This document shows, piece after piece, positions 6,636 through 42,991 of a stretch of DNA of 64,000 bases (the stretch's first letter is position 1; each line of letters starts with the position of its first letter). The stretch is taken from assembly GCA_963765675.1 (NCBI GenBank), contig CAVXXK010000001.1, positions 2,304,001-2,368,000 of the forward strand, in the 5' to 3' direction. The translations under genes were made by a program, and so were the position numbers. The notes below the pieces were generated by a model, which was given only the letters and a program-made list of their open reading frames with translations, searched no databases and had not been told where the DNA came from. The stretch is from an uncultured delta proteobacterium. Its GTDB lineage: Bacteria > Desulfobacterota > Binatia > Binatales > Binataceae.

Positions 6636-7532
6636 CTACGATTTCTTCGCAGGGGCGGCCATCTGGCCGCCCTTGTTCTTTTGCGCTCGTCCGCCGCTGT
6701 CAGTTGATTGTGGCCGCAGCTCTCCGAGGAGATGCTCCGGGCGCGTGACGATCGCGGCTTCCATCGGTCCTTCGACGCCGCCGAGGGTTCCCCAAACCTT
6801 GTAACCCAGCCGCGATTTCAGTTGATCGGAAAGCGCGCGCTCGACTTCCACATCGAGCGACAGAAACGGATTCTCCTGCGCGCGCATGAACGGCCGCGCA
6901 AAGTAACTCAGCAGCACGTGGCGCCGGCTCTCGGTCGAATTCGGTCCCGTGCCATGAAAGATGCGTCCGTCGAAGACCAGTGCCGAGCCTGCCGGTCCTT
7001 GCGCCGCGACAGTCTGCGAAGTGTCGGCGGGGTTGGCCAGCGGCGCGGCGCTCAGATGGCTTCGTGGCACCAGCCGCGTTCCGCCGTTGGCGCTCGTGAC
7101 GTCATCGAGCATCCACGCAATATTCGCGACCACCGGAATCGGTGTGTGGAATGGCAAGTAGCCTTGATCGCGATGCAGATACATCGGGGCGCCGCCGGGT
7201 CCCGCGATATTTGCGGTCAGGCTCGACAGGATGAATCCGGTGCCGAGCAGATGCGGCATAATCGCGTCTACCAGCAGATGCAGGATCAAATCGCGAAACT
7301 CACGGCCCTTGTTGATGAGGTTCCAGACCCGCTGATTGGGGAGGCTCGGGCCGCCGTCGCGGGTGGCGCGGCCGATTTCCGCTTCGGCGGCTGCCTGCTC
7401 GACCAGCCGTTCGCGAAGTGCGCGCAAGTCGCTCGCGTCGAGAGCCTCGGCGATCAGGCAATAGCCGAACGAATCCAAATCACGCTTCGCCTGCACGAGG
7501 TCGCGCGTCAGCCGCGGGAGAGCGTCGGTCAT
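6636..7532 (-). CDS. Phytanoyl-CoA dioxygenase (PhyH) family Fe/2OG enzyme
   Basis: Own ATG (MTDALPRL); MYLHRDQ (HxD), NGGTRLVPRSH, FDGRIFHGTGPN. Confidence 0.85.
   Translation of the reverse strand: MTDALPRLTRDLVQAKRDLDSFGYCLIAEALDASDLRALRERLVEQAAAEAEIGRATRDGGPSLPNQRVWNLINKGREFRDLILHLLVDAIMPHLLGTGFILSSLTANIAGPGGAPMYLHRDQGYLPFHTPIPVVANIAWMLDDVTSANGGTRLVPRSHLSAAPLANPADTSQTVAAQGPAGSALVFDGRIFHGTGPNSTESRRHVLLSYFARPFMRAQENPFLSLDVEVERALSDQLKSRLGYKVWGTLGGVEGPMEAAIVTRPEHLLGELRPQSTDSGGRAQKNKGGQMAAPAKKS
6648..6684 (+). terminator. Probable intrinsic terminator of the alpha operon
   Basis: GGGCGGCCA-TC-TGGCCGCCC hairpin followed by TTGTTCTTTT. Confidence 0.7.
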
Positions 7533-7549
7533 CGCAAATGCCTCGGTTT

Positions 7550-8399
7550 TCAAATCGAGCGCGCCGCGCGATCCAGCGCGCGGTAATCCGTGTCGTCGAG
7601 CTTGACGGCGCGCGCCTGCGTGTTTTCCTCCAGATGCGCGACGCTCGAGGTGCCGGGAATCGGCAGCATCGCGCGCGAGCGCCTGAGCAGCCACGCAAGC
7701 GCGATCTGGCCGGGCGTGGCATCGACGCGCGACGCGATCTCCTTCAGGCGCTTGTTTCATGAGCAGGTTGCTGGCGCCAAGTGGAAAATATGGGATAAAG
7801 CCAAGGCCCTCGGCTTCGCAATAGTCGAGCACCGGCTCCGATTCGCGATACGCCAGATTGTAATTATTCTGAACCGAGACGATCGGGACGATCTTGCGCG
7901 CGGCCTTGACCTGCTCGGCGCTGAAATTCGAGACCCCGACATGCCGGATCTTTCCTTCCGCGCGCAATTCGGCGAGCGCCGTGATCGACTCTTCGAGCGG
8001 CACTTTCGGATCGGGAGTGTGAAGCTGGTAGAGGTCAATTCGGTCGAGTTTCAGCCGCCTGAGACTGCCTTCGCACGCCTGTTTCAGATGCTGCGGGCGC
8101 CCGTTCGGCACCCACGAATTGGGGCCTGGCCGCGTGTAGCCGCCCTTGGTCGCGATTACCAGGTTGGCGGGATAGGGATGGATAGCTTCGGCGATAAGAT
8201 TCTCGGAGACTTCGGGGCCGTAGGCGTCGGCGGTGTCAATCAGGTTAACGCCCAATTCAACCGCGCGCTTGATTACCCGGATTGCTTCGCCGCGGTCCGG
8301 CGGGTTGCCCCAAACACCGTTGCCGGTGACTCGCATCGCTCCGAAACCGAGCCGGCCGACGCGTAGGTCGCCGCCAATCATGAAATCGTCTGTAGCCAT
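7550..8399 (-). CDS. Aldo/keto reductase with one +1 frameshift near 7755
   Basis: LGFGAM, IDTADAYG, IATKGG, IDLYQLH; the C-terminus ATPGQIALAWLL...PIPGTSSVAHLEEN lies in the +1 frame and ends TGA at 7550. Confidence 0.88.
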
Positions 8400-8513
8400 A
8401 GCAAAATCCTAGCGAATTCGCGCGTTTTTACGAAATACCCACGCCGCTGACCACTCCAACTTCTTGAGTGTGAAGCGGTCTGATAGGCTTGATTGTGAAG
8501 GTGACAAACCCCG

Positions 8514-9962
8514 ATGGCAAATGAACTGGCGCATCCGGAAAAGTTCTTTCTCAATCGCTTCGGCATGAGCGACCGCGCTTTCGAGCGGATCTTGGGCACC
8601 GCGCTCGAACGCAAAGCTGACTACGCCGACCTGTTCTTCGAATACCAGAGCGCAGAGTCGCTCGCGCTTGAAGAGTCGATGGTCAATCATACCTCCAAGA
8701 GCATCAGCCACGGCGTCGGCGTCCGCGTATGCGCCGAAGATCGCACTGGCTACGCCTACTCCGACGAAGTCACGATCGACAGGATGCAGCTCGCGGCCGA
8801 AGCCGCCCGCGCAATCGCCGACCAGCGCGCGACGGTACCCGCGGTGCAGGTAGGAGCTCCGGCCCCGCGCCATGCGCTGTACGAGGTCGAGACGACGCCG
8901 CTGGAAATTCCGCTCGAAGAGCGCGCCCGGCTCTTGCGCGAGATCGACGCCGCAGCGCGTGCGTATGATCCCCGAGTGAAGAACGTGATGGCCTCGATCG
9001 CGGCCGAGCGCAAGATCGTCATGATCGTCACCAGCGAAGGCAAGCTCGCCGCCGATGTGCAGCCGCTATGCCGCTTGAACGTGACGGTGATCGCGGAAGA
9101 TGGGAAAGGCGGCCGCCAATCCGGAACCTTCGGCGGCGGCGGACGCGTCGAGTACAAGTATTTTCTCGAAGGCGACCGATGGCGCCAGTACGCGCACGAA
9201 GCCGCACGCCAGGCGATCGTCAACCTTGACGCGGGTGACGCGCCCGCGGGCGAGATGGTCGTGGTCCTTGGGCCGGGATGGCCGGGAATCCTGCTTCACG
9301 AGGCGATCGGTCATGGGCTCGAGGGCGACTTTAATCGCAAGGGCGTTTCTGCCTTCTCCGGGCGGATCGGTCAGAAGGTCGCAAGCGAACTCTGCACCGT
9401 CGTTGACGACGGCACGATCCCGATGCGCCGCGGCAGCCTGAACGTCGATGACGAAGGCACGCCGACCTCGCGCACGGTGCTGATCGAAAAAGGAATCCTG
9501 CGCGGATATTTGCAGGATCGGATGAACGCGCGCCTGATGAAGATGAAGCCGACAGGTAACGGCCGCCGCGAGAGCTTTGCGCATACGCCGATGCCGCGAA
9601 TGACCAACACCTTCATGCTCGCCGGGGATTCGACCAAAGAGGAAATCATCAAGTCGGTGAAAAAGGGCCTCTACGCGGTCAACTTTGGCGGTGGGCAGGT
9701 CGATATCACTAATGGCAAATTCGTCTTCTCCGCGAGCGAGGCCTACCTGATCGAGGACGGCCAGGTGACACGCCCGGTAAAGGGCGCAACGCTGATCGGC
9801 GACGGTCCCGACGTGCTGACGCGCGTCGCGATGGTCGGCAACGACCTCGCACTGGATTCGGGCGTCGGCACCTGCGGCAAGGACGGCCAATCGGTGCCGG
9901 TGGGCGTAGGACTTCCGACGATTCGGATCGACGGGCTCACGGTGGGCGGCACTCGCGCATGA
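8514..9962 (+). CDS. tldD: Metalloprotease TldD
   Basis: LLHEAIGHGLEGD, TGNGRRES..H.PMPRMTNT, GTCGKDGQSVPV. Confidence 0.96.
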   Translation: MANELAHPEKFFLNRFGMSDRAFERILGTALERKADYADLFFEYQSAESLALEESMVNHTSKSISHGVGVRVCAEDRTGYAYSDEVTIDRMQLAAEAARAIADQRATVPAVQVGAPAPRHALYEVETTPLEIPLEERARLLREIDAAARAYDPRVKNVMASIAAERKIVMIVTSEGKLAADVQPLCRLNVTVIAEDGKGGRQSGTFGGGGRVEYKYFLEGDRWRQYAHEAARQAIVNLDAGDAPAGEMVVVLGPGWPGILLHEAIGHGLEGDFNRKGVSAFSGRIGQKVASELCTVVDDGTIPMRRGSLNVDDEGTPTSRTVLIEKGILRGYLQDRMNARLMKMKPTGNGRRESFAHTPMPRMTNTFMLAGDSTKEEIIKSVKKGLYAVNFGGGQVDITNGKFVFSASEAYLIEDGQVTRPVKGATLIGDGPDVLTRVAMVGNDLALDSGVGTCGKDGQSVPVGVGLPTIRIDGLTVGGTRA

Positions 9963-31067: not shown

Positions 31068-32054
31068 TCATTCCTCAGCAATCGGGGCGACGGGAGCGGG
31101 GGTGGTTACGAATGCGATGGCGCCGGTCAGGCCGCCGATCATCGTTGCGGCGAACCATAGCAGGCCGAGCGCGATTGCGTCGTCGTGGCGCACGCCAGCC
31201 ATCCCGAACAGCATCAGGTAGGCGGTCTCGCGGATGCCGAGGCCGTTGAGCGTGAGCGGCAGGCTTGCGAATACGTTCGCGATCGGCACGCAGAGAAGAA
31301 AAATCGCGACCGGCGTCGTAAGCCCGAGCCCGCGCGCGAGCATCCACTGGCAGATCGCGAGCGAGATCTGCAGGATCAGCGAAAGCACGGCCGCCGGGAG
31401 CATCGTCTGCGGACGATGCAGATACGGCATCACGATATTTCCGGCGCGGCGGATCGGCCGCGGCATCAGATGCACGATCCGCGCGAGTAACGGCGCGGCG
31501 AGGAATCCCGCGAGCGCGATCACGCCGACAACGATCGTCGGGCGCAGCACTTCCGCCGACAGCGCGCTGTGTTCGAGCATCGCCATCGCGGCCGCGAGCC
31601 AGAACAGTGCGAGCAATCCGATCCCGCGATCGGCGACGACCGAGGCCACCGCCTCGCCCATCCTGCCGCTGTCGCGTCCGAGGTAGATCGCGCGCGCGGC
31701 GTCACCGCCGACGAGCCCCGGCACGAACAGATTCGTGAACATCCCGATAAAGTAGAACCGCAGGTACTGCGCGAAGCGCTCATGCACGTGCAGCACCGCG
31801 CCGAGCAGTTGCCATCGCCACGCCGACATCACCTGTCCCGCGACGTACAGCGCGATCGCGCCGGCGAACCATCCGAGATTTTCGCGCGGCAGGATTCGCA
31901 GGACCGGGCGCGCGTCGTAATGCCACAGCAGGAAAGCGATCACGACCAGGCCCAGCCCGGCGCGCATCGCGAACGCGCGATACGGATGCGCCCGCTTGGG
32001 CGCGGTTACGGCAGCGTCGGGCGGTGCTGCGTCAGCGGTGCGATGCGGGTTCAT
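31068..32054 (-). CDS. Lysylphosphatidylglycerol synthase TM / UPF0104 flippase-like protein (same family as HpnL)
   Basis: AWRWQLL, FVPGLVGGDAARAIYL, LPLTLNGLGIRE. Confidence 0.85.
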   Translation of the reverse strand: MNPHRTADAAPPDAAVTAPKRAHPYRAFAMRAGLGLVVIAFLLWHYDARPVLRILPRENLGWFAGAIALYVAGQVMSAWRWQLLGAVLHVHERFAQYLRFYFIGMFTNLFVPGLVGGDAARAIYLGRDSGRMGEAVASVVADRGIGLLALFWLAAAMAMLEHSALSAEVLRPTIVVGVIALAGFLAAPLLARIVHLMPRPIRRAGNIVMPYLHRPQTMLPAAVLSLILQISLAICQWMLARGLGLTTPVAIFLLCVPIANVFASLPLTLNGLGIRETAYLMLFGMAGVRHDDAIALGLLWFAATMIGGLTGAIAFVTTPAPVAPIAEE

Positions 32055-33768
32055 TCGATTTCAAAATCGCGCGCTTGTGAAATTCGGCTCCAATCAGGGT
32101 GTAATTGCCGAGTCGTCCGCGAAGCCGCTCGAAGTCGGGCGCGTCGAGCACGAGCACCTTTGCGCCGGGCGCGTCCCACAAGCGCATCAAGTCGGCGTCG
32201 GACTTGAAAAAGTAATCCTTCTCGTCCGGCGCGAGCGCCGCCCCGAAGCCAAGCTCGGTTTTGGTTCCGACCAGTATCACGCGCCGCCTGGTATAAAACG
32301 CCAGCGACTGGACATAGCGATGGTAGCAAATCAGCTCCGCGTCGGGCGCGCGCGCGGCGACCTCTCGCCCAAGGACTGCATACGATCGCAGCGGCTCGGC
32401 CTCGATCCGCGCCCAGGTTCCCGCGACGAGCGCGAGCGCCGTCGTGATCACGATCGCACTGAGTCCCACGGCGTTGCGTCGCATGAAAAATGCCGCGGCG
32501 GCAACCGCTCCGCCGGCGACGAGAATCGCGCCAATCGCATAGAGCGCCGGCTGAACGTAGATCGGATAAGGCGTGCGGAAAATGGGCGCGAGGACGGCGG
32601 CGGCGATCACGCACGCTCCCAGTATCCCGAGCATCGGACCGCTCTCGACGAGTATCCGCGAATCGGGTGGACGCAACGCGCGCCGCGTGGAGTCCGAGCG
32701 CTCGGGCCATGCGCAGGAGATCAGTCCATCGGCGATCAGGATTGCCAGCATCGGCACCGCGGGCAGGATGTATGGAATGAGCTTGGCGCTCGCGCACGAG
32801 AACGCGCCGACGATCACGATCGCGCAGACGACGCAGAAGCGCCGAGCCGGATTTGGCGGTATCGCGCGCCAGACCAGGAACGGCACCAGCATCGACCATG
32901 GCAACAGCCCGACCGCGAGCGCGGGCGCATAGAACCAGAACGGTTCGCCGTGGCTGTAGCTCGATTGAAAGATGCGCCGCAGATGCTCTCCGACGAAATA
33001 GAAATCGAAGTAGCCGGGGACCTTGACGATTATCGCGATAAACCAGGGCGCGGCGATTACCGCGATCAGAATCGCGCCCCAGATCGCGTGAAAGCGACGG
33101 AGCGCGCCGTGCCAGTCGCCTTGCCATGCGAGAAACGCGAGCATCGCGAGGACAGGCAGCGCAACCGCGACGGGTCCCTTGGTGAGCACGCCGAGCGCCA
33201 TCGCGAGCGACGCGATCCACCACCATTTTCCGAAGCCGCCGCGGGCCTCGCGCCAATGCAGGTACATCGCGAAGTTCGCGATCGTGACGAGCACCGCCAG
33301 GATCATGTCGGTCAGGAGGACTTGCGCCATCACGGCATATAGCGGCGTCGTCGCGAGGATTGCGCCCGAAAGGATCGCGTGGCGCCGGCCGAACGTGCGC
33401 AGCGCAAAATACGCGGTGGCGGCGACGCCGAGGACTGCGAACGTCGCGGGAAAAAATCGCGCGGCGAATTCGGTCGTGCCGAAAACGTGATACGAGAGCG
33501 CCGTCAGCCAGTAGAGCAGGGGCGGCTTCTCAACGTAGATGACGTAGTTGAGATGCGGCACCAGATAGCCGCCGCTAGTGATCATTTCGCGCGCGATCTC
33601 GGCGTAGCGCGCTTCGTCCGGCTCCCACAGCCCGTAGCGCCAAAGATTGAAGAAGCAGACGATAGCGGCGAGCGCGGTCGGCGCGGCTATCGCGATCGCG
33701 TTGTCCCGGCGCTCGTGCGTGAGGCCGTCGGAACGCGGCTCTGCGATCGATTCGAGAGTTTCAGACAC
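32032..33768 (-). CDS. ArnT-like GT83/PMT-family (GT-C) glycosyltransferase
   Basis: LWEPDEARYAEIAREM, YVEKPPLLYW, LTKGPV, SAKLIPYILP. Confidence 0.9.
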   Translation of the reverse strand: MSETLESIAEPRSDGLTHERRDNAIAIAAPTALAAIVCFFNLWRYGLWEPDEARYAEIAREMITSGGYLVPHLNYVIYVEKPPLLYWLTALSYHVFGTTEFAARFFPATFAVLGVAATAYFALRTFGRRHAILSGAILATTPLYAVMAQVLLTDMILAVLVTIANFAMYLHWREARGGFGKWWWIASLAMALGVLTKGPVAVALPVLAMLAFLAWQGDWHGALRRFHAIWGAILIAVIAAPWFIAIIVKVPGYFDFYFVGEHLRRIFQSSYSHGEPFWFYAPALAVGLLPWSMLVPFLVWRAIPPNPARRFCVVCAIVIVGAFSCASAKLIPYILPAVPMLAILIADGLISCAWPERSDSTRRALRPPDSRILVESGPMLGILGACVIAAAVLAPIFRTPYPIYVQPALYAIGAILVAGGAVAAAAFFMRRNAVGLSAIVITTALALVAGTWARIEAEPLRSYAVLGREVAARAPDAELICYHRYVQSLAFYTRRRVILVGTKTELGFGAALAPDEKDYFFKSDADLMRLWDAPGAKVLVLDAPDFERLRGRLGNYTLIGAEFHKRAILKSNEPASHR

Positions 33769-34163
33769 GGGGTGAGAGTCTAACTGGCAGAAGCCTCGCG
33801 AGCGATGCTATCGCGGCGCGGAGAATTCCGCCCAAGGATTCGCCCGTCCGCACAAGAGCGGTTGCTCAACCAACAAAAAACGGTGGGTTCGTTTGGTAAA
33901 TTTTGATGTCGCGGCAGGTGGTGCCGACGAAAATTTAGCTTGAAATCATTGGAGTTTTTGCCGATGGATCGTGGCTTCGTTTGAGATTTCCGTCAAATTA
34001 CGTCCTGTGTTTCGCCACTCGATCGCCATTCGGTCACGGTCCGCTCCCCGCCCGCTCTCGCCCCTCCGTCCACTAGTAATCATATGCAATAATCATTTAG
34101 TTTACAAGGTGCACAGTTCCTCTCGACCGGTGAGCGGCTCGACTGAATGAAGTGACACAGGCT

Positions 34164-34871
34164 TCAGCCTTTGATGTCTGCCTTTCGGGTCCTTCCGGGC
34201 CGCGACCGCAGGGTGCCGTAGAAATTTCGGCCGCTCCAATTGACGCGCACGGGAAAGCCCTCGAACACGGCCGGAATGTCTCTTTCCAAGGTACTTTCAA
34301 AAATGCCACGACCGGAAATTCCAAGAGACAGTCCCACATCCAGTTCCGGAGGCGGGGTTATAAAGTTGACACTGACGCTCATGAAAACCCATCCTTGCTT
34401 CGCGAATAGGCTCCGCAGTCCTGGCGTCGCGACAAAATCGGTGAGCGCCTTTAGTGCCAACGAGATGTCTTGGTCTTTCGTTGGGCTCTCGGGTTTATCG
34501 CCACCCCCGAAAGCTACCTCAAATCCCTCGAAATTCTTGGGTAGCCAGCTCTTGGCAAGCTCAATAAAATGCCTGCCGGTACTATCCGAACCTGGCGGAA
34601 CAGCGACCAGGAATTTGAAATGCGGGGGAGAAACTTCTCTATCATAGACTACGCCAAGGCTCACCACAGCGCCGCTTGCAATTAGTTTCCTTAATGGGGG
34701 CTGATTCGAGAAGTCATACAGGGAGCTCGCCACTTCTGAGAAGGTGGCGGTTTCCGCTGCGAACGCCGACATCCCTGTGGCAGCTTGGAACGATGCCATC
34801 AGTACGACGACCGCCAAAGAAGCACTGATGCGTACGAATCCCAGCCTCATTGCTGGATTCCCGACTCCCAT
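34164..34871 (-). CDS. Secreted hypothetical protein with two tandem ~85-aa LPxxFEGxxV domains
   Basis: Signal-peptide-like N-terminus (..SAFA|AE); repeats end LPKNFEGFEV and IPAVFEGFPV; begins 12 bp after the protease stop. Confidence 0.7.
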   Translation of the reverse strand: MGVGNPAMRLGFVRISASLAVVVLMASFQAATGMSAFAAETATFSEVASSLYDFSNQPPLRKLIASGAVVSLGVVYDREVSPPHFKFLVAVPPGSDSTGRHFIELAKSWLPKNFEGFEVAFGGGDKPESPTKDQDISLALKALTDFVATPGLRSLFAKQGWVFMSVSVNFITPPPELDVGLSLGISGRGIFESTLERDIPAVFEGFPVRVNWSGRNFYGTLRSRPGRTRKADIKG

Positions 34872-34883
34872 CTCTGCCGTCGG

Positions 34884-36180
34884 CTAATTACCATAAGCGC
34901 CGCCGCTCGTGGTCAAATCGATGACGTCTGTTACACTGAATTCGACAGGAACGCCTTCAAACGAGGTGGGCAACAGGTCTTCGGCCATGGTTTTGTCGTC
35001 CACACCTTCGTAGGTGCTGTCGTTGGCCGTTACGTCAAGCGACGCCGGATTGGTGGAAAAGTCGATAGCGACGCCATCAATCACGCCATCATCCATCAAA
35101 ACGGGAATCCAGCCACCACTCAGGAAATCATTCCGCGCCAACATTGCAGTCAGGATGTCGGGGTCCGGCACTGTGCCGTCCTCACTTTCGGTCGTTCCGT
35201 CGTCGAGCGCCACATCGATCTGATTCGTCGCCGTGCATCCGCCGCCGCCCGGAACCACGACGAGGCTCGCGGACGAGCCCGCAGCCATCTGCAGGTAATT
35301 CAGCACGGCGCCGATCGGCGCAACATAAGTGACGTTGGAGGTCCCGCCGACGTCGATTCCTATCGGCTGCGGGCACAGGCCTTCCGTAAAGACTAGCGCG
35401 CCCGAGTCGCCCGGATGGTCAAATCCGGCTGGCGTCACGACGACATGCGGCCCGAACTTGACCTCGGTATAGCCACAGCTTGCCTTATCCCCCACAATTT
35501 TGCCATCGACGACAGTCGACTTGGTGTAGGTATGAGAACAGATACTGTAGTGGACCGTCTTCAAAATTTCTTTGTATTGCCCATGTGTAAGGCCGGTCCA
35601 CGCGCCCACCTTCTGAACCTTCGTCTTTCTTTTAAGTGACGAGATCGGCGTGCCGCTGAATACGCCAAAGCCTTCTATGGAGCTGCTGACCTGCCCGGGA
35701 AGGACCTTCGCAAGAGCGGCGTCGTAAGTGTTCAAAACCCCGCTGCTGAAGTTGATGGGAATAACCGTGCTTAGCGATGCTACTTGATAAGCCGTGATCT
35801 GAGCAGCAGTGGGTGGACACGTTGGAGTAGGATAAGCGGAAGGAAGGGGGTTAATAGACGCCGCGATCCCGAAATTAGGCTGGATGATCGGTTCAGGAAG
35901 AACCCGTAGAGAGATAGCCGGTGGGCGCCAATGCTAATACGTGCGCCGCGCCTAATATATATAGGCTCGTCCCGTCAGTCACCAACCCGCCGAGGGTGCC
36001 ATCCTCGAACAGGCAAACCCCTGTGTTTTGAGCGATGTTAACGAGACTATTTGCTCCGTCAACTCCCAGCGGGATAGGGCGCGAGTAAAGCTGCTGATTA
36101 CCCACGCCCGCGCCGTACGCAATCGAAGCGCCCGCGACTGCCAGAACCATTGCGAGGAGATATGATATCTTCCAAGTCAT
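34884..36180 (-). CDS. Secreted trypsin-fold (S1/Nal1-like) serine protease with C-terminal LPTSFEGVPV domain; one +1 frameshift at 35896-35933
   Basis: Signal peptide; GTLGGLV...ILGAAHVL (His 35941-35943), EPIIQP, YDAAL (Asp 35721-35723), VQKVG..TGLTHG, PGDSGALV (Ser 35403-35405); AAGGGGG RBS. Confidence 0.8.
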
Positions 36181-36266
36181 CGTGGCCCCCTTGAACGTCG
36201 CCGCGTTGAACCCTCAGCGCGGTCTTCCCTAATGGATCCACTGCTCTTGTGAACCCCAAGGGCGTA

Positions 36267-36296
36267 ACCGTACCCCCCCCCAGACGATATTGTCAA
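36267..36296 (-). promoter_or_regulatory. Candidate promoter of the protease operon, with a G9 tract in the spacer
   Basis: TTGACA-ATATCGTCTGGGGGGGGG (18 bp)-TACGGT. Confidence 0.55.
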
Positions 36297-36469
36297 CAGA
36301 AAGTGAGCGCCGCTTTGCGGCTGGTTATCGTCGGGTCGCGCGATTGCGAACCGCGATGCTCATGCATGGAGATAGGTCGAAGACGACCGTGGAATGTGCG
36401 CGGCGCGATGATGCCGCCGCTGCACTCCTTTAATCCTCGATGGCAGACAACAATGGGCAGCGTCAGCAA

Positions 36470-38179
36470 TCAATATCCTGCGGCCATGCCGCCTTTTCGA
36501 GGATCGCCTGCGCCTCGGAGGCTGCCGGGCGCGATCGTAATTGCGCCTACCGCGCCGAGCATCGGAACTACGCGGATTTTGTAGCCCATCTGCTCGAGGG
36601 CGGCGCGAGTCTCGGCTGGCATCTTTTCTTCTATGATCACCGTGGACGGTTCGGCCTGTTCGTGGATGCGCGCTTCTTCGACCGCGGCGCGGGGGCCCAA
36701 GTGGAAATCGATCACGTCCAGCAGGATTTGCAGCACGCCGGTGATTATCGTTGGTCCGCCGGAGCCGCCGACCGCGAGGATCGGCTTGCCGTTTTTCACG
36801 ACGATCGTCGGCGTCATCGAGGAGAGCGGCCGCTTGCCCGGCGCGATCTCGTTGGCCACGACGCCCTCGAGCCGGTATGCGTTGGGCACGTTGGGCGCGA
36901 CCGCGAAGTCGTCCATCTCATCGTTGAGGATGACGCCGCTCTTCGGCTCCATCAGCTTCGATCCGAAAACCGTGTTGATCGTCGTCGTCAGCACGACCAC
37001 GTTGCCCGCACTGTCGACCACCGCGAGGTTCGCCGTGCCATGATCGTGGGCCGCCGTGGGCGTGGGCTCGGGAGCGCCGTGATGCAACGCGCGGTCGCGC
37101 GCCTGATCGATATGCTGGGGCGAGAGGAGAGTCGCGATCGGAACCTTGACGAACGCCGGATCGCTGTATTGTTCGCGATCGATAAATCCCTGGCGCATCA
37201 CTTCGATGAGCCGCGCCAGATACGGCGGCGAGTTGACGCCGAGGCCGCCCAGATGCCCCGGCTCGAGCATCCCGAGCATCTCGAGCACCACGCCGCCCGA
37301 CGACGGCGGCGGCATCACGTAAACCTCGTCGCCCTGGTAGGCGCGATGCAGAGGCTCGCGCCAGACCGGCTTATAGGCGGCGAGATCGTCGGTCGAAATG
37401 ATTCCGCCGTGTGCGTCGATAAAGCTGGCCAGCTCGGCCGCGAAAGCGCCGTGGTAAAACTTGTCGGCGGGTTTGTCGCCGAGGGCTACGATCGTGTCGG
37501 CAAGTTTCTTCTCAAAAATCAGGTCGCCGGCTTTCGGCGCGGTGCCGTCAGCTTTGAGAAATACCGAAGCGAGACCGGGAGCCTGCGCGAGCTGCGGCGC
37601 CATCCGCGCGATCTCTCCTGCCAGATGCGGTCCGAGCGAAAAGCCGTCGCGCGCGAGGGTTACGGCGGGCGCGGCGACTTGCTGGAATTTCATCGTGCCG
37701 AACCGGGTCAGCGCGGCGTCGAGTCCGGCGATCTCGCCGGGCACCGCGATCGCGAGCGCTCCGTTGCGGGCGAGCTCCTCGTCAGGTTTGCCGTCGCGCA
37801 GGTACATCGTCGAGGTGGCCTTGAGCGGCGCGGTCTCGCGATAGTCAAGCGCGTAGAATTTTCCGGTGCTGGCCATATAGATCAACATGAAGCCGCCGCC
37901 GCCGATCCCGCATGAGGCTGAGTGCGTCACTCCGGTAGCGAGCGAGGCCGCTGCCGCCGCGTCGATCGCATTGCCACCCTGCTTGAGAATCTCTACTCCG
38001 GCGGCCGCAGCCTCGGGAGTCTCGGCCACGACCATCGCGTGCGCGCCCCTGACCGAAGTGTCGGTCGGAGAATCGGCGGCGACCGCGGTCGATACAAAAA
38101 CGATCAACGACAAGAAAAACGCGATAGCGGCGCGGCGAGCTCGTGCCGAACAGGGAGATTGAGCGCGAAAAAGCATCAC
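36470..38179 (-). CDS. ggt: Gamma-glutamyltransferase
   Basis: GGNAIDAA, GIGGGGF, DYRETAP, HG|TANLAVVD autocleavage Thr, KRPLSSMTP. Confidence 0.95.
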   Translation of the reverse strand: MMLFRAQSPCSARARRAAIAFFLSLIVFVSTAVAADSPTDTSVRGAHAMVVAETPEAAAAGVEILKQGGNAIDAAAAASLATGVTHSASCGIGGGGFMLIYMASTGKFYALDYRETAPLKATSTMYLRDGKPDEELARNGALAIAVPGEIAGLDAALTRFGTMKFQQVAAPAVTLARDGFSLGPHLAGEIARMAPQLAQAPGLASVFLKADGTAPKAGDLIFEKKLADTIVALGDKPADKFYHGAFAAELASFIDAHGGIISTDDLAAYKPVWREPLHRAYQGDEVYVMPPPSSGGVVLEMLGMLEPGHLGGLGVNSPPYLARLIEVMRQGFIDREQYSDPAFVKVPIATLLSPQHIDQARDRALHHGAPEPTPTAAHDHGTANLAVVDSAGNVVVLTTTINTVFGSKLMEPKSGVILNDEMDDFAVAPNVPNAYRLEGVVANEIAPGKRPLSSMTPTIVVKNGKPILAVGGSGGPTIITGVLQILLDVIDFHLGPRAAVEEARIHEQAEPSTVIIEEKMPAETRAALEQMGYKIRVVPMLGAVGAITIAPGSLRGAGDPRKGGMAAGY

Positions 38180-40040: not shown

Positions 40041-40439
40041 GTGGCGGCACGTACTCCTAAATCCAAACCCACGCCGAGCGATCTTATCTTCGGCGATTTC
40101 GAGCGCGCGGTTGACGCGTTCTTCGATGAGATGCTGGTCGATCGATGGAAGTGCGGGACCGCGTCCGGATTCGAGAGCGCCGTGCTTTCCGATCTTCCCG
40201 ACCGCTACGAGATCCGCCTCGCGTCGCGCGGAGTCGATCCGAAATCGATCGAGGTCGAGAGCCGGGGCCAGCGCCTGACCGTGCGCGCGGGCGCGGCGGA
40301 ATTCGGACGCCTCGAGAGTATCTTCACTTTGGCGGAGACGGTGGAGTCCGATTCGGCCTCGGCCACCTGGTCGCGCGGCGTTTTGACGGTCGTCGTCCCC
40401 AAACACAAAGCCCGAAAAATCGCGCTCAAGGCGGATTGA
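40041..40439 (+). CDS. Hsp20/alpha-crystallin family protein, divergent
   Basis: GVDPKSIEV, FGRLESIFTL, ASATWSRGVLTVVVPK. Confidence 0.8.
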   Translation: MAARTPKSKPTPSDLIFGDFERAVDAFFDEMLVDRWKCGTASGFESAVLSDLPDRYEIRLASRGVDPKSIEVESRGQRLTVRAGAAEFGRLESIFTLAETVESDSASATWSRGVLTVVVPKHKARKIALKAD

Positions 40440-40464
40440 ATCCCGCCTGTTTGCCGGAGCCCGC

Positions 40465-42991
40465 ATGGCCGAAGACATCGCACCCGCCGGTCCTGTAATC
40501 CCAATCGAGCCGAAAGCGGCAGAAGCCGCCGCGGAGCTCCGTCCGGCGGAGCTCCGCGCCAGCGTTGCGATCGACGGCGCCGAACTTAAACGCGCCGCGG
40601 AGACTGACGGTGATGCGGAGCTGCTCGGGCAGAGCCGCGCGATCGACGCGATCAAGCTCGCGATCGGAATCGACGCGCCGGGCTACAACGTGTACGTGAG
40701 CGGACTGCGTACCCGGATCGAGCGCGACACCGTGCTGGCGCTGCTGGCGGAAAAAGCCGCCACGATACCGACGCCGGGCGACTGGGTTTACGTCAACAAT
40801 TTTCGCAACCCCGAGTCTCCGAGCGCGATCTATCTGCGCGCAGGGCAGGGGCGCGATCTCGCGCAGCGGATGCACGATCTGGTCGCGCTGATCGTCGAGC
40901 AATTACCCAAGGCCTTCCGACGCGAGGATTTTGATCAGGAGCGCACGGCTTTGCGCGACAAGTACAATCAGCGCGCGCAGGAGCTGTTCAAGCAAATCGA
41001 GACTCGCGCGCGCGAGCGCGGCTTCGCGCTCCAGGGCGGCCCCGGCGGCCAGGTTATCTTCATCCCGCTGATCGAGGGCAAGGTTCCCGAATCCCCCGAG
41101 GTGCTGCAAAAAGCGATGAGCGCCAAGACCGACGCCGAGCGCGAGCAGATGATGCGCGCGCAGGCCGAGCTCGAAAACGAATTCAGCGGACTGGTTGGCC
41201 GCCAGCAGGAGCTGATGCGCGACCTGGTCGACGATATCCGCGCGATCGAGCGCGCGTTCGCCGCCAAGCTCATCATCCCCTCGGTCGAAGACTTAAAGCG
41301 CCACTTTAATAATCCCGGAGTGACGGGATACCTCGACCAGGTCGCCGATCACATGCTCTCGCATCTGGATCGCTTCCGCGAAGCTGGCGCCACAGCAGCC
41401 GGGCGCCGAGCCGCAGCCGCCCACGCCCGAGGACGGACCGCGATGGTTCGAGTACCAGGTCAACGTCATGGTCGATAACTCGACCACCCAGGGAGCGCCG
41501 GTGGTGAGCGAGGACGCGCCGAATTATCGCAACCTGTTCGGCACGATCGAGCGGTGGATCGATCCGCTGGGGCGCTCGGGCACCAACTTCACCCGGATTA
41601 TCGGCGGGTCGTTTTTGAAATCGCACGGCGGCTTCCTGGTCCTGGACCTCGACGACGCGGTGGTCGAGCCGGGGGTGTGGAAGACACTCAAGCGCAGCCT
41701 CAAGTCCGGGCGCATGACGCTCGAGACGTTTGAGCCGCTGCCGTTTTTCTCGATGAGCGGGCTCAAGCCCGAGCCGATCGAGGTGCACACCAAGCTGGTG
41801 GTTCTGGGCGGCGCGTATCTCTACAACATGCTCTATTTCTACGACTCGGAGTTTTCGGACCTGTTCAAGGTCAAGGCCGAGATGCGCCCGTCGATCGACG
41901 CGGACGCGAGCGCCGCGCGCCACTACGCCGGCCACGTGGGCTCGCTTGCCCGGCGCGAGAACCTGCCGCCGTTCTCCGGCGACGCGCTGCGCAAAATCGT
42001 CGAGTTCGGGATGCGCCAGGCGGGCGACCGCACCCGGGTGCTCGCGATGCTCGAGCCGATCGACGATCTGGCGCGCGAGTCCGCCTACTTCGCGCGCGCC
42101 GACCACGCCACCGAGGTCTCGGGCGCGCACGTCGAACGCGCGCTGGCGGAGCGGGTGCTGCGGCTTAATCATATCGAAGAGGAAATCCGCCGGATGATCG
42201 CGCGCGGCACCCTGGTGGTGCAGATCACGGGCAAAGCCGTCGGACAGATAAATGGGCTCGCCGTGATCGACGTCGGCGGCTATGCGTTCGGCCGCCCCTC
42301 GCGCGTGACCGCGACCGTCGCGCTGGGACAGGCGGGCCTTATCAATATCGAGCGCGAGGCGCGCCTGTCGGGCTCGACCCACGACAAGGGAATCATGATC
42401 CTCTCGGGGTTTCTGCGCGCGCGATTCGGCCAGGCGCATCCGCTGGCGATGACCGCGTCGATCGCGTTCGAGCAATCGTATTCCGGAATCGACGGCGACA
42501 GCGCCAGCTCGACCGAGCTCTACGCGCTACTCTCGGCGCTCTCGGGCGTGCCGATCCGGCAGGATCTCGCGGTGACGGGATCGGTCGACCAACACGGCCA
42601 TGTGCAGGCGATTGGCGGCGCCAACGAGAAAATTGAAGGCTACTACCGCGTCTGCAAGGCGATCGGGATGACCGGGACGCAGGGCGTGATGGTGCCGAAG
42701 ACCAACGTCGAGAACCTGATGCTCGAGCCTGAGACGGTCGCGGCGGTCGAGCGCGGCGAATTCCACATCTATGCGATCGACACGATCGATCACGGGATCG
42801 AGTTGCTAACCGGCGTGCGCGCGGGCACCGTCGATGAGCCCGGAACGATCAACTACTTGGTCGATCAACGCCTGCGAGCGATGGCCGACGTGCTGCGCAA
42901 CTCGGGCAATCGCGAGACGCGCGTCGTGCATGAAGTCGATAGCACGCCGCCGGCGCCCAAGCCGCCCTCGCCTCCGGAGCCGCCGCGCTGA
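40465..42991 (+). CDS. LonC/LonB-like protease (AAA-like plus Lon protease domain) with one +1 frameshift near 41381
   Basis: LLGQSRA, DWVYVNNF, FEYQVNVMVDN across the shift, VGQINGL, EQSYSGIDGDSAS (Ser), IGGANEKIEG (Lys). Confidence 0.88.

Follow-up and report, generated by a model that had tools for sequence, protein, structure and literature searches.

What is the relation between a secreted protease and a neighbouring protein that consists of two copies of the protease's own end domain? The question is raised by two adjacent minus-strand genes in a 64,000-nucleotide stretch of DNA (the window; NCBI GenBank assembly GCA_963765675.1, contig CAVXXK010000001.1, positions 2,304,001 to 2,368,000) from a soil bacterium of the family Binataceae. 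Gene 1 encodes a serine protease that ends in a small alpha/beta domain, and gene 2 encodes a shorter protein, predicted to be secreted, with two domains of the same kind. An initial annotation had proposed that gene 2 supplies the protease with a cognate inhibitor, foldase or co-assembling scaffold. We find that the end domain is a lineage-restricted, unannotated alpha/beta family that occurs almost only in Binataceae, either at the C-terminus of the protease or in free tandem proteins, and that a dedicated protease-partner system at this locus is not established. The reading that we favour, tentatively, makes the domain a module for binding or targeting that serves both proteases and secreted proteins independent of them, with gene 2 as a tandem copy that arose locally and diverged. 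The parts of the two genes are listed here, with one relative (genome G156) and one soil-metagenome run (X2) as references for the break in gene 1.

35893..36180, minus strand: 5' part of the protease gene (frame A), 95 amino acids with the start codon, signal peptide, RPIPLGV core start and catalytic His; it ends at a TGA (35893-35895) created by an extra base.
35893..35897, minus strand: frameshift site, with one base more than G156 and the X2 contigs (TCC-TGA versus TCG-GAA).
34884..35891, minus strand: 3' part of the protease gene (frame B), with the catalytic Asp and Ser, a Gly-rich linker containing a conserved Cys, the tail domain and the stop codon (34884-34886).
34887..35168, minus strand: C-terminal alpha/beta domain of the protease, 94 amino acids, acidic, of a domain family seen in the searched genomes only within Binataceae.
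34164..34871, minus strand: gene 2, 235 amino acids, predicted to be secreted, with two diverged tandem domain copies and a basic C-terminal tail.
34506..34730, minus strand: N-terminal domain copy of gene 2, the most diverged among the three.
34221..34478, minus strand: C-terminal domain copy of gene 2, identified with BLASTP, a hidden Markov model (HMM) and hhalign.

When the two frames are joined across the break, gene 1 encodes 431 amino acids that begin with a signal peptide pattern of the n/h/c type (judged by eye, as for gene 2) and carry the catalytic His in AAHVL (codon 35941-35943), the Asp in YDAALAK (codon 35721-35723) and the Ser in GDSGALV (codon 35403-35405). The tail contains 18 acidic residues (D+E) against 2 basic ones (K+R) in its 94 positions. 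The initial annotation had described a gene of about 430 amino acids with one frameshift, a signal peptide, a His-Asp-Ser triad and an acidic tail, and each of these elements was recovered; so was its placement of a second gene with a signal peptide 12 bp downstream. Gene 2 starts 12 nucleotides past the protease stop, is co-oriented with the protease gene and encodes no catalytic domain.

Neither protease fragment of the window matched Pfam (E<=1) or NCBIfam. A word-indexed search returned 27 protease homologues, including intact proteins of 437 amino acids (72% identity) and 431 amino acids (70% identity), and a 98%-identical protein that NCBI assigns to a Candidatus Binataceae metagenome-assembled genome. 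The Pfam family Nal1_C (PF25819) gave weak matches of 17-26 bits in 5 of 11 scanned proteins (ten protease homologues and one gene 2 homologue); its gathering threshold of 26.1 bits was reached by a single protein, P0032 (26.2 bits), and the window fragments fell short of it. We predicted the structure of an intact homologue, P0008, at a mean predicted local distance difference test score (pLDDT) of 60, a moderate confidence that combines values under 50 in the N-terminal barrel with values of 80-93 in the C-terminal barrel and the tail. The best PDB matches of this model in Foldseek were chains of rice NAL1 (E 2e-4 to 1e-3, probability 0.98-1.0), in agreement with the initial annotation of gene 1 as a secreted, trypsin-fold, Nal1-like serine protease, and the fold of the catalytic domain is also closest to alpha-lytic-type proteases. 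In an alignment of 43 proteases (A7), the Asp, the Ser and the glycine of GDSG are invariant and the His is nearly so. The His-Asp-Ser order with a GDSG-type motif and the double beta-barrel fold are those of peptidase clan PA, family S1. Because the triad is conserved across the 43 proteases and Foldseek points to NAL1, we assign the gene 1 product to the secreted PA-clan chymotrypsin-fold serine proteases; the Nal1-like and alpha-lytic-like groups are its closest kin, and current Pfam models do not cover it.

This protease family is restricted to Binataceae among the genomes searched. A protease homologue (E<=1e-5) is present in 76 of 165 family genomes, a tally that includes genomes flagged as unpublished (G158, G017, G018, G102, G163 and G164). 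More distant paralogues, often in tandem arrays, carry a shorter version of the same C-terminal domain. Such paralogues (about 30% identity, with a shorter tail ending in ...VAY) frequently form head-to-tail pairs in other Binataceae genomes, for example at G008:C296 7501-9578, G013:C64 11344-13363, G035:C7 334369-336453 and G027:C9 2827-4853. Searches of the literature on Binatota proteases and on bacterial NAL1 homologues found nothing about this protease family.

The tail of the protease and both halves of gene 2 are homologous, at a level well above chance. In a BLASTP comparison of the 3' frame of the protease with gene 2, the tail aligned to the C-terminal half of gene 2 with 28% identity over 123 columns (E 4e-6). 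Profile comparisons with hhalign placed the tail with the gene 2 C-domain at a probability of 97.6% (E 3e-12), the two gene 2 domains with each other at 97.2% (E 3e-11) and the tail with the gene 2 N-domain at 89-92% (E about 1e-6), where observed scores of 37.7-63.8 compare with maxima of 15.4-19.8 when the columns of each pair were shuffled 60 times. Weakest of the three is the N-terminal copy, and an HMM built from protease tails only found the C-terminal copy (i-E 1.7e-5) and missed the N-terminal one (i-E 7.8). In the predicted structure of gene 2 (pLDDT 77, predicted template modelling score (pTM) 0.74), each copy is built as helix-helix-strand-strand-helix-strand, and the tail in the P0008 model has the identical order of strands and helices. 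The proposal that gene 2 consists of two copies of the protease-tail domain thus survived the profile check, with hhalign E values from 3e-12 to about 1e-6 and scores above those of the shuffles.

Known families gave no name to the domain. A profile from an alignment of 28 copies (A4) found chance-level matches only among PDB sequences (best E 1.3); Pfam searches with the 28 copies (E<=10) returned nothing relevant, BON and Pro_Al_protease included; and NCBIfam and the ESM Atlas yielded no usable match for the domain. OsmY, DolP and BonA are dual-BON periplasmic proteins. Proteins of this kind are among the nearest known systems, but gene 2 has no Pfam match and none of the 28 domain copies matches BON at E<=10.

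The domain profile, run against 1.84 billion representative proteins, gave 85 matches at E<=1e-3. These comprise 23 proteins in which the domain accompanies a protease core, 11 that lack the core and have at least two domains, 30 that have one domain and are mostly short fragments, and 21 very long proteins with partial or repetitive matches, which we take as spurious. In a sample of the phylum, the domain was present in 2 of 401 genomes, both from the window's family, and in 0 of 396 genomes outside it. Each aligned member of the protease family ends in an alpha/beta domain of about 85 residues, and the domain lies C-terminal of the core in 23/23 library proteins that have both and in 43/43 proteases of the A7 alignment. 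Upstream of the conserved RPIPLGV core start there is only the signal peptide and about 10-20 residues. The initial annotation had supposed that a module of this kind usually precedes the catalytic domain and had been moved to the C-terminus here; this idea is contradicted because proteases across the wider family likewise have the domain at their C-terminal end, and we found no sequence link to the N-terminal parts of NAL1.

The free tandem-domain proteins fall into two types, A and B, gene 2 being of type B. Type A has a conserved inter-domain linker and a second domain that is 44-48% identical to protease tails, and type B has FEGFPV-type strands and a basic C-terminal tail. With hhalign, the protease tail matches the type-A C-domain at E 6e-26, against 3e-12 for the gene 2 C-domain. 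The gene 2 domains are thus the most diverged members of the family, and they do not duplicate the tail of the adjacent protease. The gene 2 family profile has matches in 18 of 165 family genomes (unpublished G158 counted). A type-A gene (284 amino acids, secreted) lies on another contig of the window's own genome (L003 1447-2301, minus strand, corresponding to G000:C4 about 96933-97736), beside an ORF (open reading frame) that we named by eye as short-chain-dehydrogenase-like; the G159 orthologue of this ORF has the Pfam match adh_short. Type-A orthologues are present in at least 9 other family genomes.

Two variants of type A were also seen. In G153 and in the metagenome contig L054, a type-A protein is fused to a third, gene-2-like domain. 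The type-A protein of L043 7223-8515 (minus strand, G098:C235) has about 190 extra C-terminal residues with two short ...VDGVPVV... motifs, which may be degenerate additional copies of the domain's last strand.

In the tree of domains, the type-B copies form a clade with support of 99/96, and the tail of the window's protease is its sister with support of 91/88. This placement hints, though not strongly, that gene 2 may have been born from the tail of this protease lineage by local duplication.

The initial annotation had named homologues of the partner that are not linked to proteases as an observation that would speak against its reading. We scanned the surroundings of 13 free tandem-domain loci, of which 11 come from genomes, one comes from a metagenome contig and one is the window's own. 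A protease core stands beside the free gene in the window and in G156 (98% identical) only. In G151, the last ~105 nucleotides of the protease remain immediately upstream of an intact gene 2 homologue. At the other 10 loci there was no match to the protease-core HMM, with ~7 kb available on each side at 8 of them and with 2 bounded by a contig end (1.4-3.7 kb); the neighbours there are unrelated housekeeping genes, among them those for a TrmI-type methyltransferase, a molybdopterin oxidoreductase, PBP1 (penicillin-binding protein 1), an acyl-CoA dehydrogenase and a glutathione S-transferase. A scan of metagenome contigs for gene 2 gave 2 loci, one on a 1,166-nt contig that is too short for any neighbour and the other encoding a fusion of three domains, within 6 kb of which no protease lies.

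Presence of the two genes is likewise not coupled across genomes. A tail-bearing protease occurs with no free tandem gene detected in G155, G003, G064, G154, G041 and G083 (79-98% complete), and a free tandem gene occurs with no tail-bearing protease in G153, G151, G010, G012, G098, G069, G048 and G055. The absences are soft because the completeness of these genomes ranges over 69-99%. Between protease and gene 2 no terminator-like site was found, and promoter-like matches were uninformative. A prediction of the complex between P0008 (residues 25-437, 42-row alignment) and gene 2 (residues 35-212) scored 0.00 in two runs made without controls and speaks neither for nor against binding. Of the proposed inhibitor, foldase or scaffold, then, the adjacency and the homology are real, and the functional pairing is weakened: homologues of the partner are largely unlinked to proteases. 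A dedicated system is not established because adjacency is limited to a few close relatives, namely the window, G156 and the G151 remnant, and the 10 other loci have no protease core.

A separate question is whether the protease is intact in the organism. The extra base relative to G156 lies at 35896. All homologues that cover the break (11/11) continue through a Gly/Ser-rich stretch and then (E/Q)(P/A)I/V-x-QP, and in run X2, whose contigs share 99% identity with the window here, the site is in frame and no gap occurs over 34864-36152. Similar insertions occur nearby. The aldo-keto reductase gene at 6636-8408 (minus strand) has its last 68 residues in another frame (7550-7756), with an extra base at ~7757 that is absent in G156; the Lon-like protease gene at 40387-42991 (plus strand; LonC_helical, AAA_32 and Lon_C) is split into two overlapping frames, with an extra base at ~41387 that is absent in G159 and G160. 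This makes three single-base insertions in conserved genes among 68 greedy ORF calls in a 16-contig assembly. Between the window and G156, the protease differs by 17 synonymous and 7 non-synonymous changes (ratio of non-synonymous to synonymous divergence, pN/pS, 0.13) and gene 2 by 16 synonymous and 17 non-synonymous changes (pN/pS 0.35). Because of the two similar insertions, the in-frame X2 allele and the protease pN/pS of 0.13, we consider the frameshift to be probably a consensus error of this assembly, and the protease is therefore probably functional in the organism. A real frameshift that leaves the protease dead, which the initial annotation had named as fatal to its proposal, is thus probably not what this site holds. 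The assembly has single-base insertions in conserved genes, and its repairable frameshifts should not be read as biology without the reads.

At the two frameshift sites that can be compared with G156 (window 35892 and 7755), G156 reads GTTCCGAAG at both, which may be coincidence. A systematic miscalling (methylation) motif at GTTCCGAAG sites was rejected: TTCCGAA/TTCGGAA is intact at 12 places in the window, and at two of these G156 has the motif as well.

The gene pair sits in a slot whose content varies between strains. The slot and its neighbours are as follows.

33769..36469, no strand assigned: low-GC strain-variable slot, guanine-cytosine (GC) content 0.561, against 0.654 in the left and 0.638 in the right flank.
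32032-33768, minus strand: PMT/ArnT-type glycosyltransferase gene (Pfam), left flank of the slot.
36470-38179, minus strand: gamma-glutamyltranspeptidase gene (Pfam), right flank of the slot.

These values, and a distance of 630-740 bp between the same flanking genes in the congeners G160, G159 and G151, bear out the earlier description of a lower-GC insert between housekeeping genes. The G160 slot (L095 337-891, G160:C3) holds a 184-residue ORF with a Y1_Tnp (IS200-like) Pfam match between 22-nt inverted repeats, an element that we take to resemble a REP-associated transposase, and the G159 slot has inverted repeats as in G160. Two studies (runs X1 and X6) provide contigs that agree with the window across gene 2 and the 3' part of the protease as far as 35743, and past this point their sequence matches the edge of the G160 inverted-repeat element at 29 of 30 bases. 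One X7 contig skips 35633-36190, and gene 2 in X1 is one base short at 34624. A search for direct or inverted repeats at the flanks of the window's insert gave nothing convincing. When the window is compared with G156, synonymous divergence (pS) reaches 0.27 in each of the flanking genes but 0.07-0.09 in the insert; because the insert lies 3-4 times below its flanks, these values suggest that the cassette was recently exchanged or swept, by transfer or by a recombination sweep.

Members of the protease family are interrupted elsewhere as well. In G159, a Mutator-family (IS256-type) transposase (PF00872, E 4e-69; L052 8312-9607, minus strand, G159:C3) interrupts a tail-bearing protease paralogue. 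The G054 protease has an in-frame TAA exactly between catalytic core and tail domain (L051 7736-7738, G054:C5), and the G041 protease has a frameshift inside the core (L047 about 8698-8777, G041:C12). The latter two breaks may be errors because both genomes are few-contig assemblies.

What, then, would the domain do? We favour a binding module because the free proteins live without a protease and the second domain of type A is close to the protease tails. In this reading, the domain would bind or target a shared ligand, which could be an envelope component or a substrate class, and would resemble in its role the C-terminal accessory domains of other proteases that are secreted or periplasmic. 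In the free tandem proteins the module would work without any protease, the type-A second domain would have stayed very close to the tails as if for a common ligand, and gene 2 would lie beside the protease through duplication of the tail-coding segment and not as an obligate partner. Several observations weigh against this reading. The presence of the domain in every member would be just as expected of a folding domain or pro-domain, and the closest catalytic folds, those of the alpha-lytic type, need one. The 12-nt spacing and the order kept in G151, with the protease 3' end followed by a gene 2 homologue at 43% protein identity, mark an old pairing that fits a functional link. The sister placement of the window's tail lacks strong support, and the gene 2 N-domain lies on a long branch. 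Finally, the frameshift could be real, given that the G156 protease has a one-base deletion of its own (one C missing from a CCC run ~100 nt upstream) and that the gene is truncated in other strains. A rival view is that the pair is a decaying island, a horizontally moved and dispensable cassette under loss in which the protease is a true pseudogene and gene 2 an orphan with no current role. The variability of the slot and the low pS of the insert, which suggests recent exchange, would fit this view, as would the independent lesions in relatives (the G156 deletion, the X1 and X6 ends at 35743, the X7 skip and the X1 base loss in gene 2), the ~105 nt of protease retained in G151 and the family members broken in G159, G041 and G054. 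We nevertheless regard it as distinctly improbable, given that the pN/pS values of both genes indicate purifying selection over the sampled divergence, that X2 carries an in-frame allele, that at least two similar one-base insertions in other conserved genes accompany the window frameshift, which is therefore likely technical, and that several of the broken relatives are few-contig assemblies which may share this type of error.

The pairing itself could be explained by a propeptide-like partner, in which the C-terminal domain acts as an intramolecular chaperone and/or inhibitor and gene 2 supplies two copies of it in trans as an inhibitor, self-protection factor or foldase. Adjacent, co-oriented genes with no terminator-like site found between them, the homology of gene 2 to the accessory domain of the protease and the old gene order in G151 favour this explanation, and two known systems lend it further weight. 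Proteases of the alpha-lytic type need a Pro region for folding (PMC2829044), and the family described here lacks a pro region at the N-terminus while its C-terminal domain is never absent; in alpha-lytic and streptogrisin-type S1 proteases the Pro region is N-terminal, whereas here the extra domain is C-terminal and no N-terminal region of that size exists. In the streptococcal SpeB-Spi system, the inhibitor is "a propeptide analogue" whose gene adjoins the protease gene (PMC2873492), and our locus is alike in that a gene beside the protease encodes a homologue of the protease's own non-catalytic segment. It differs in that the protease is a serine S1 and not a cysteine C10 enzyme, that the putative partner has two copies and that homologues of this partner are mostly unlinked to proteases. 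We consider a propeptide-like partner unlikely, if worth serious attention: no protease lies near the free tandem genes at the 10 loci outside this sublineage, 6 genomes have the protease and no free tandem gene while 8 show the reverse, gene 2 is intact where the protease was lost (G151), and the 28 domain copies have no Pfam likeness to the alpha-lytic Pro region (E<=10). The broader claim that the C-terminal module may represent a pro-domain of a new class, one that folds or inhibits Nal1-like or alpha-lytic-like proteases, with the free tandem proteins (gene 2 and type A) as propeptide mimics in trans, we hold to be more doubtful still. Rice NAL1, the nearest solved relative by Foldseek, raises yet another prospect. 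NAL1 forms a hexameric cage that assembles through its non-catalytic N-terminal parts, and it has an N-terminal domain and an ATP-binding domain ahead of the protease domain (PMC12012508); the window protease, by comparison, is secreted, lacks both of these and has the C-terminal alpha/beta domain instead. The domain might thus drive oligomerisation, with gene 2 built into the oligomer or capping it, and the two domains of gene 2 do pack as one confident unit (pTM 0.74). This co-assembly role appears very unlikely, however, given that the accessory domains of NAL1 and of this protease occupy unrelated positions and that free tandem proteins exist without a protease.

Together, our results describe a branch of Nal1-like serine proteases that is invisible to Pfam and always carries the same end domain, together with the domain itself, which has no Pfam annotation, no sequence match in the PDB and a distribution confined to one family of uncultured soil bacteria. 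If the domain is a binding module, the locus would be an ordinary case of domain duplication and shuffling. Should it instead be a C-terminal folding or inhibitory module that also acts in trans, it would represent a new way in which kinetically stable proteases solve their pro-domain problem. Were the free tandem proteins to mimic the propeptide in trans, secreted proteases would be held inactive in the periplasm or helped to fold, and Binataceae would possess a control system of their own, analogous to SpeB-Spi.

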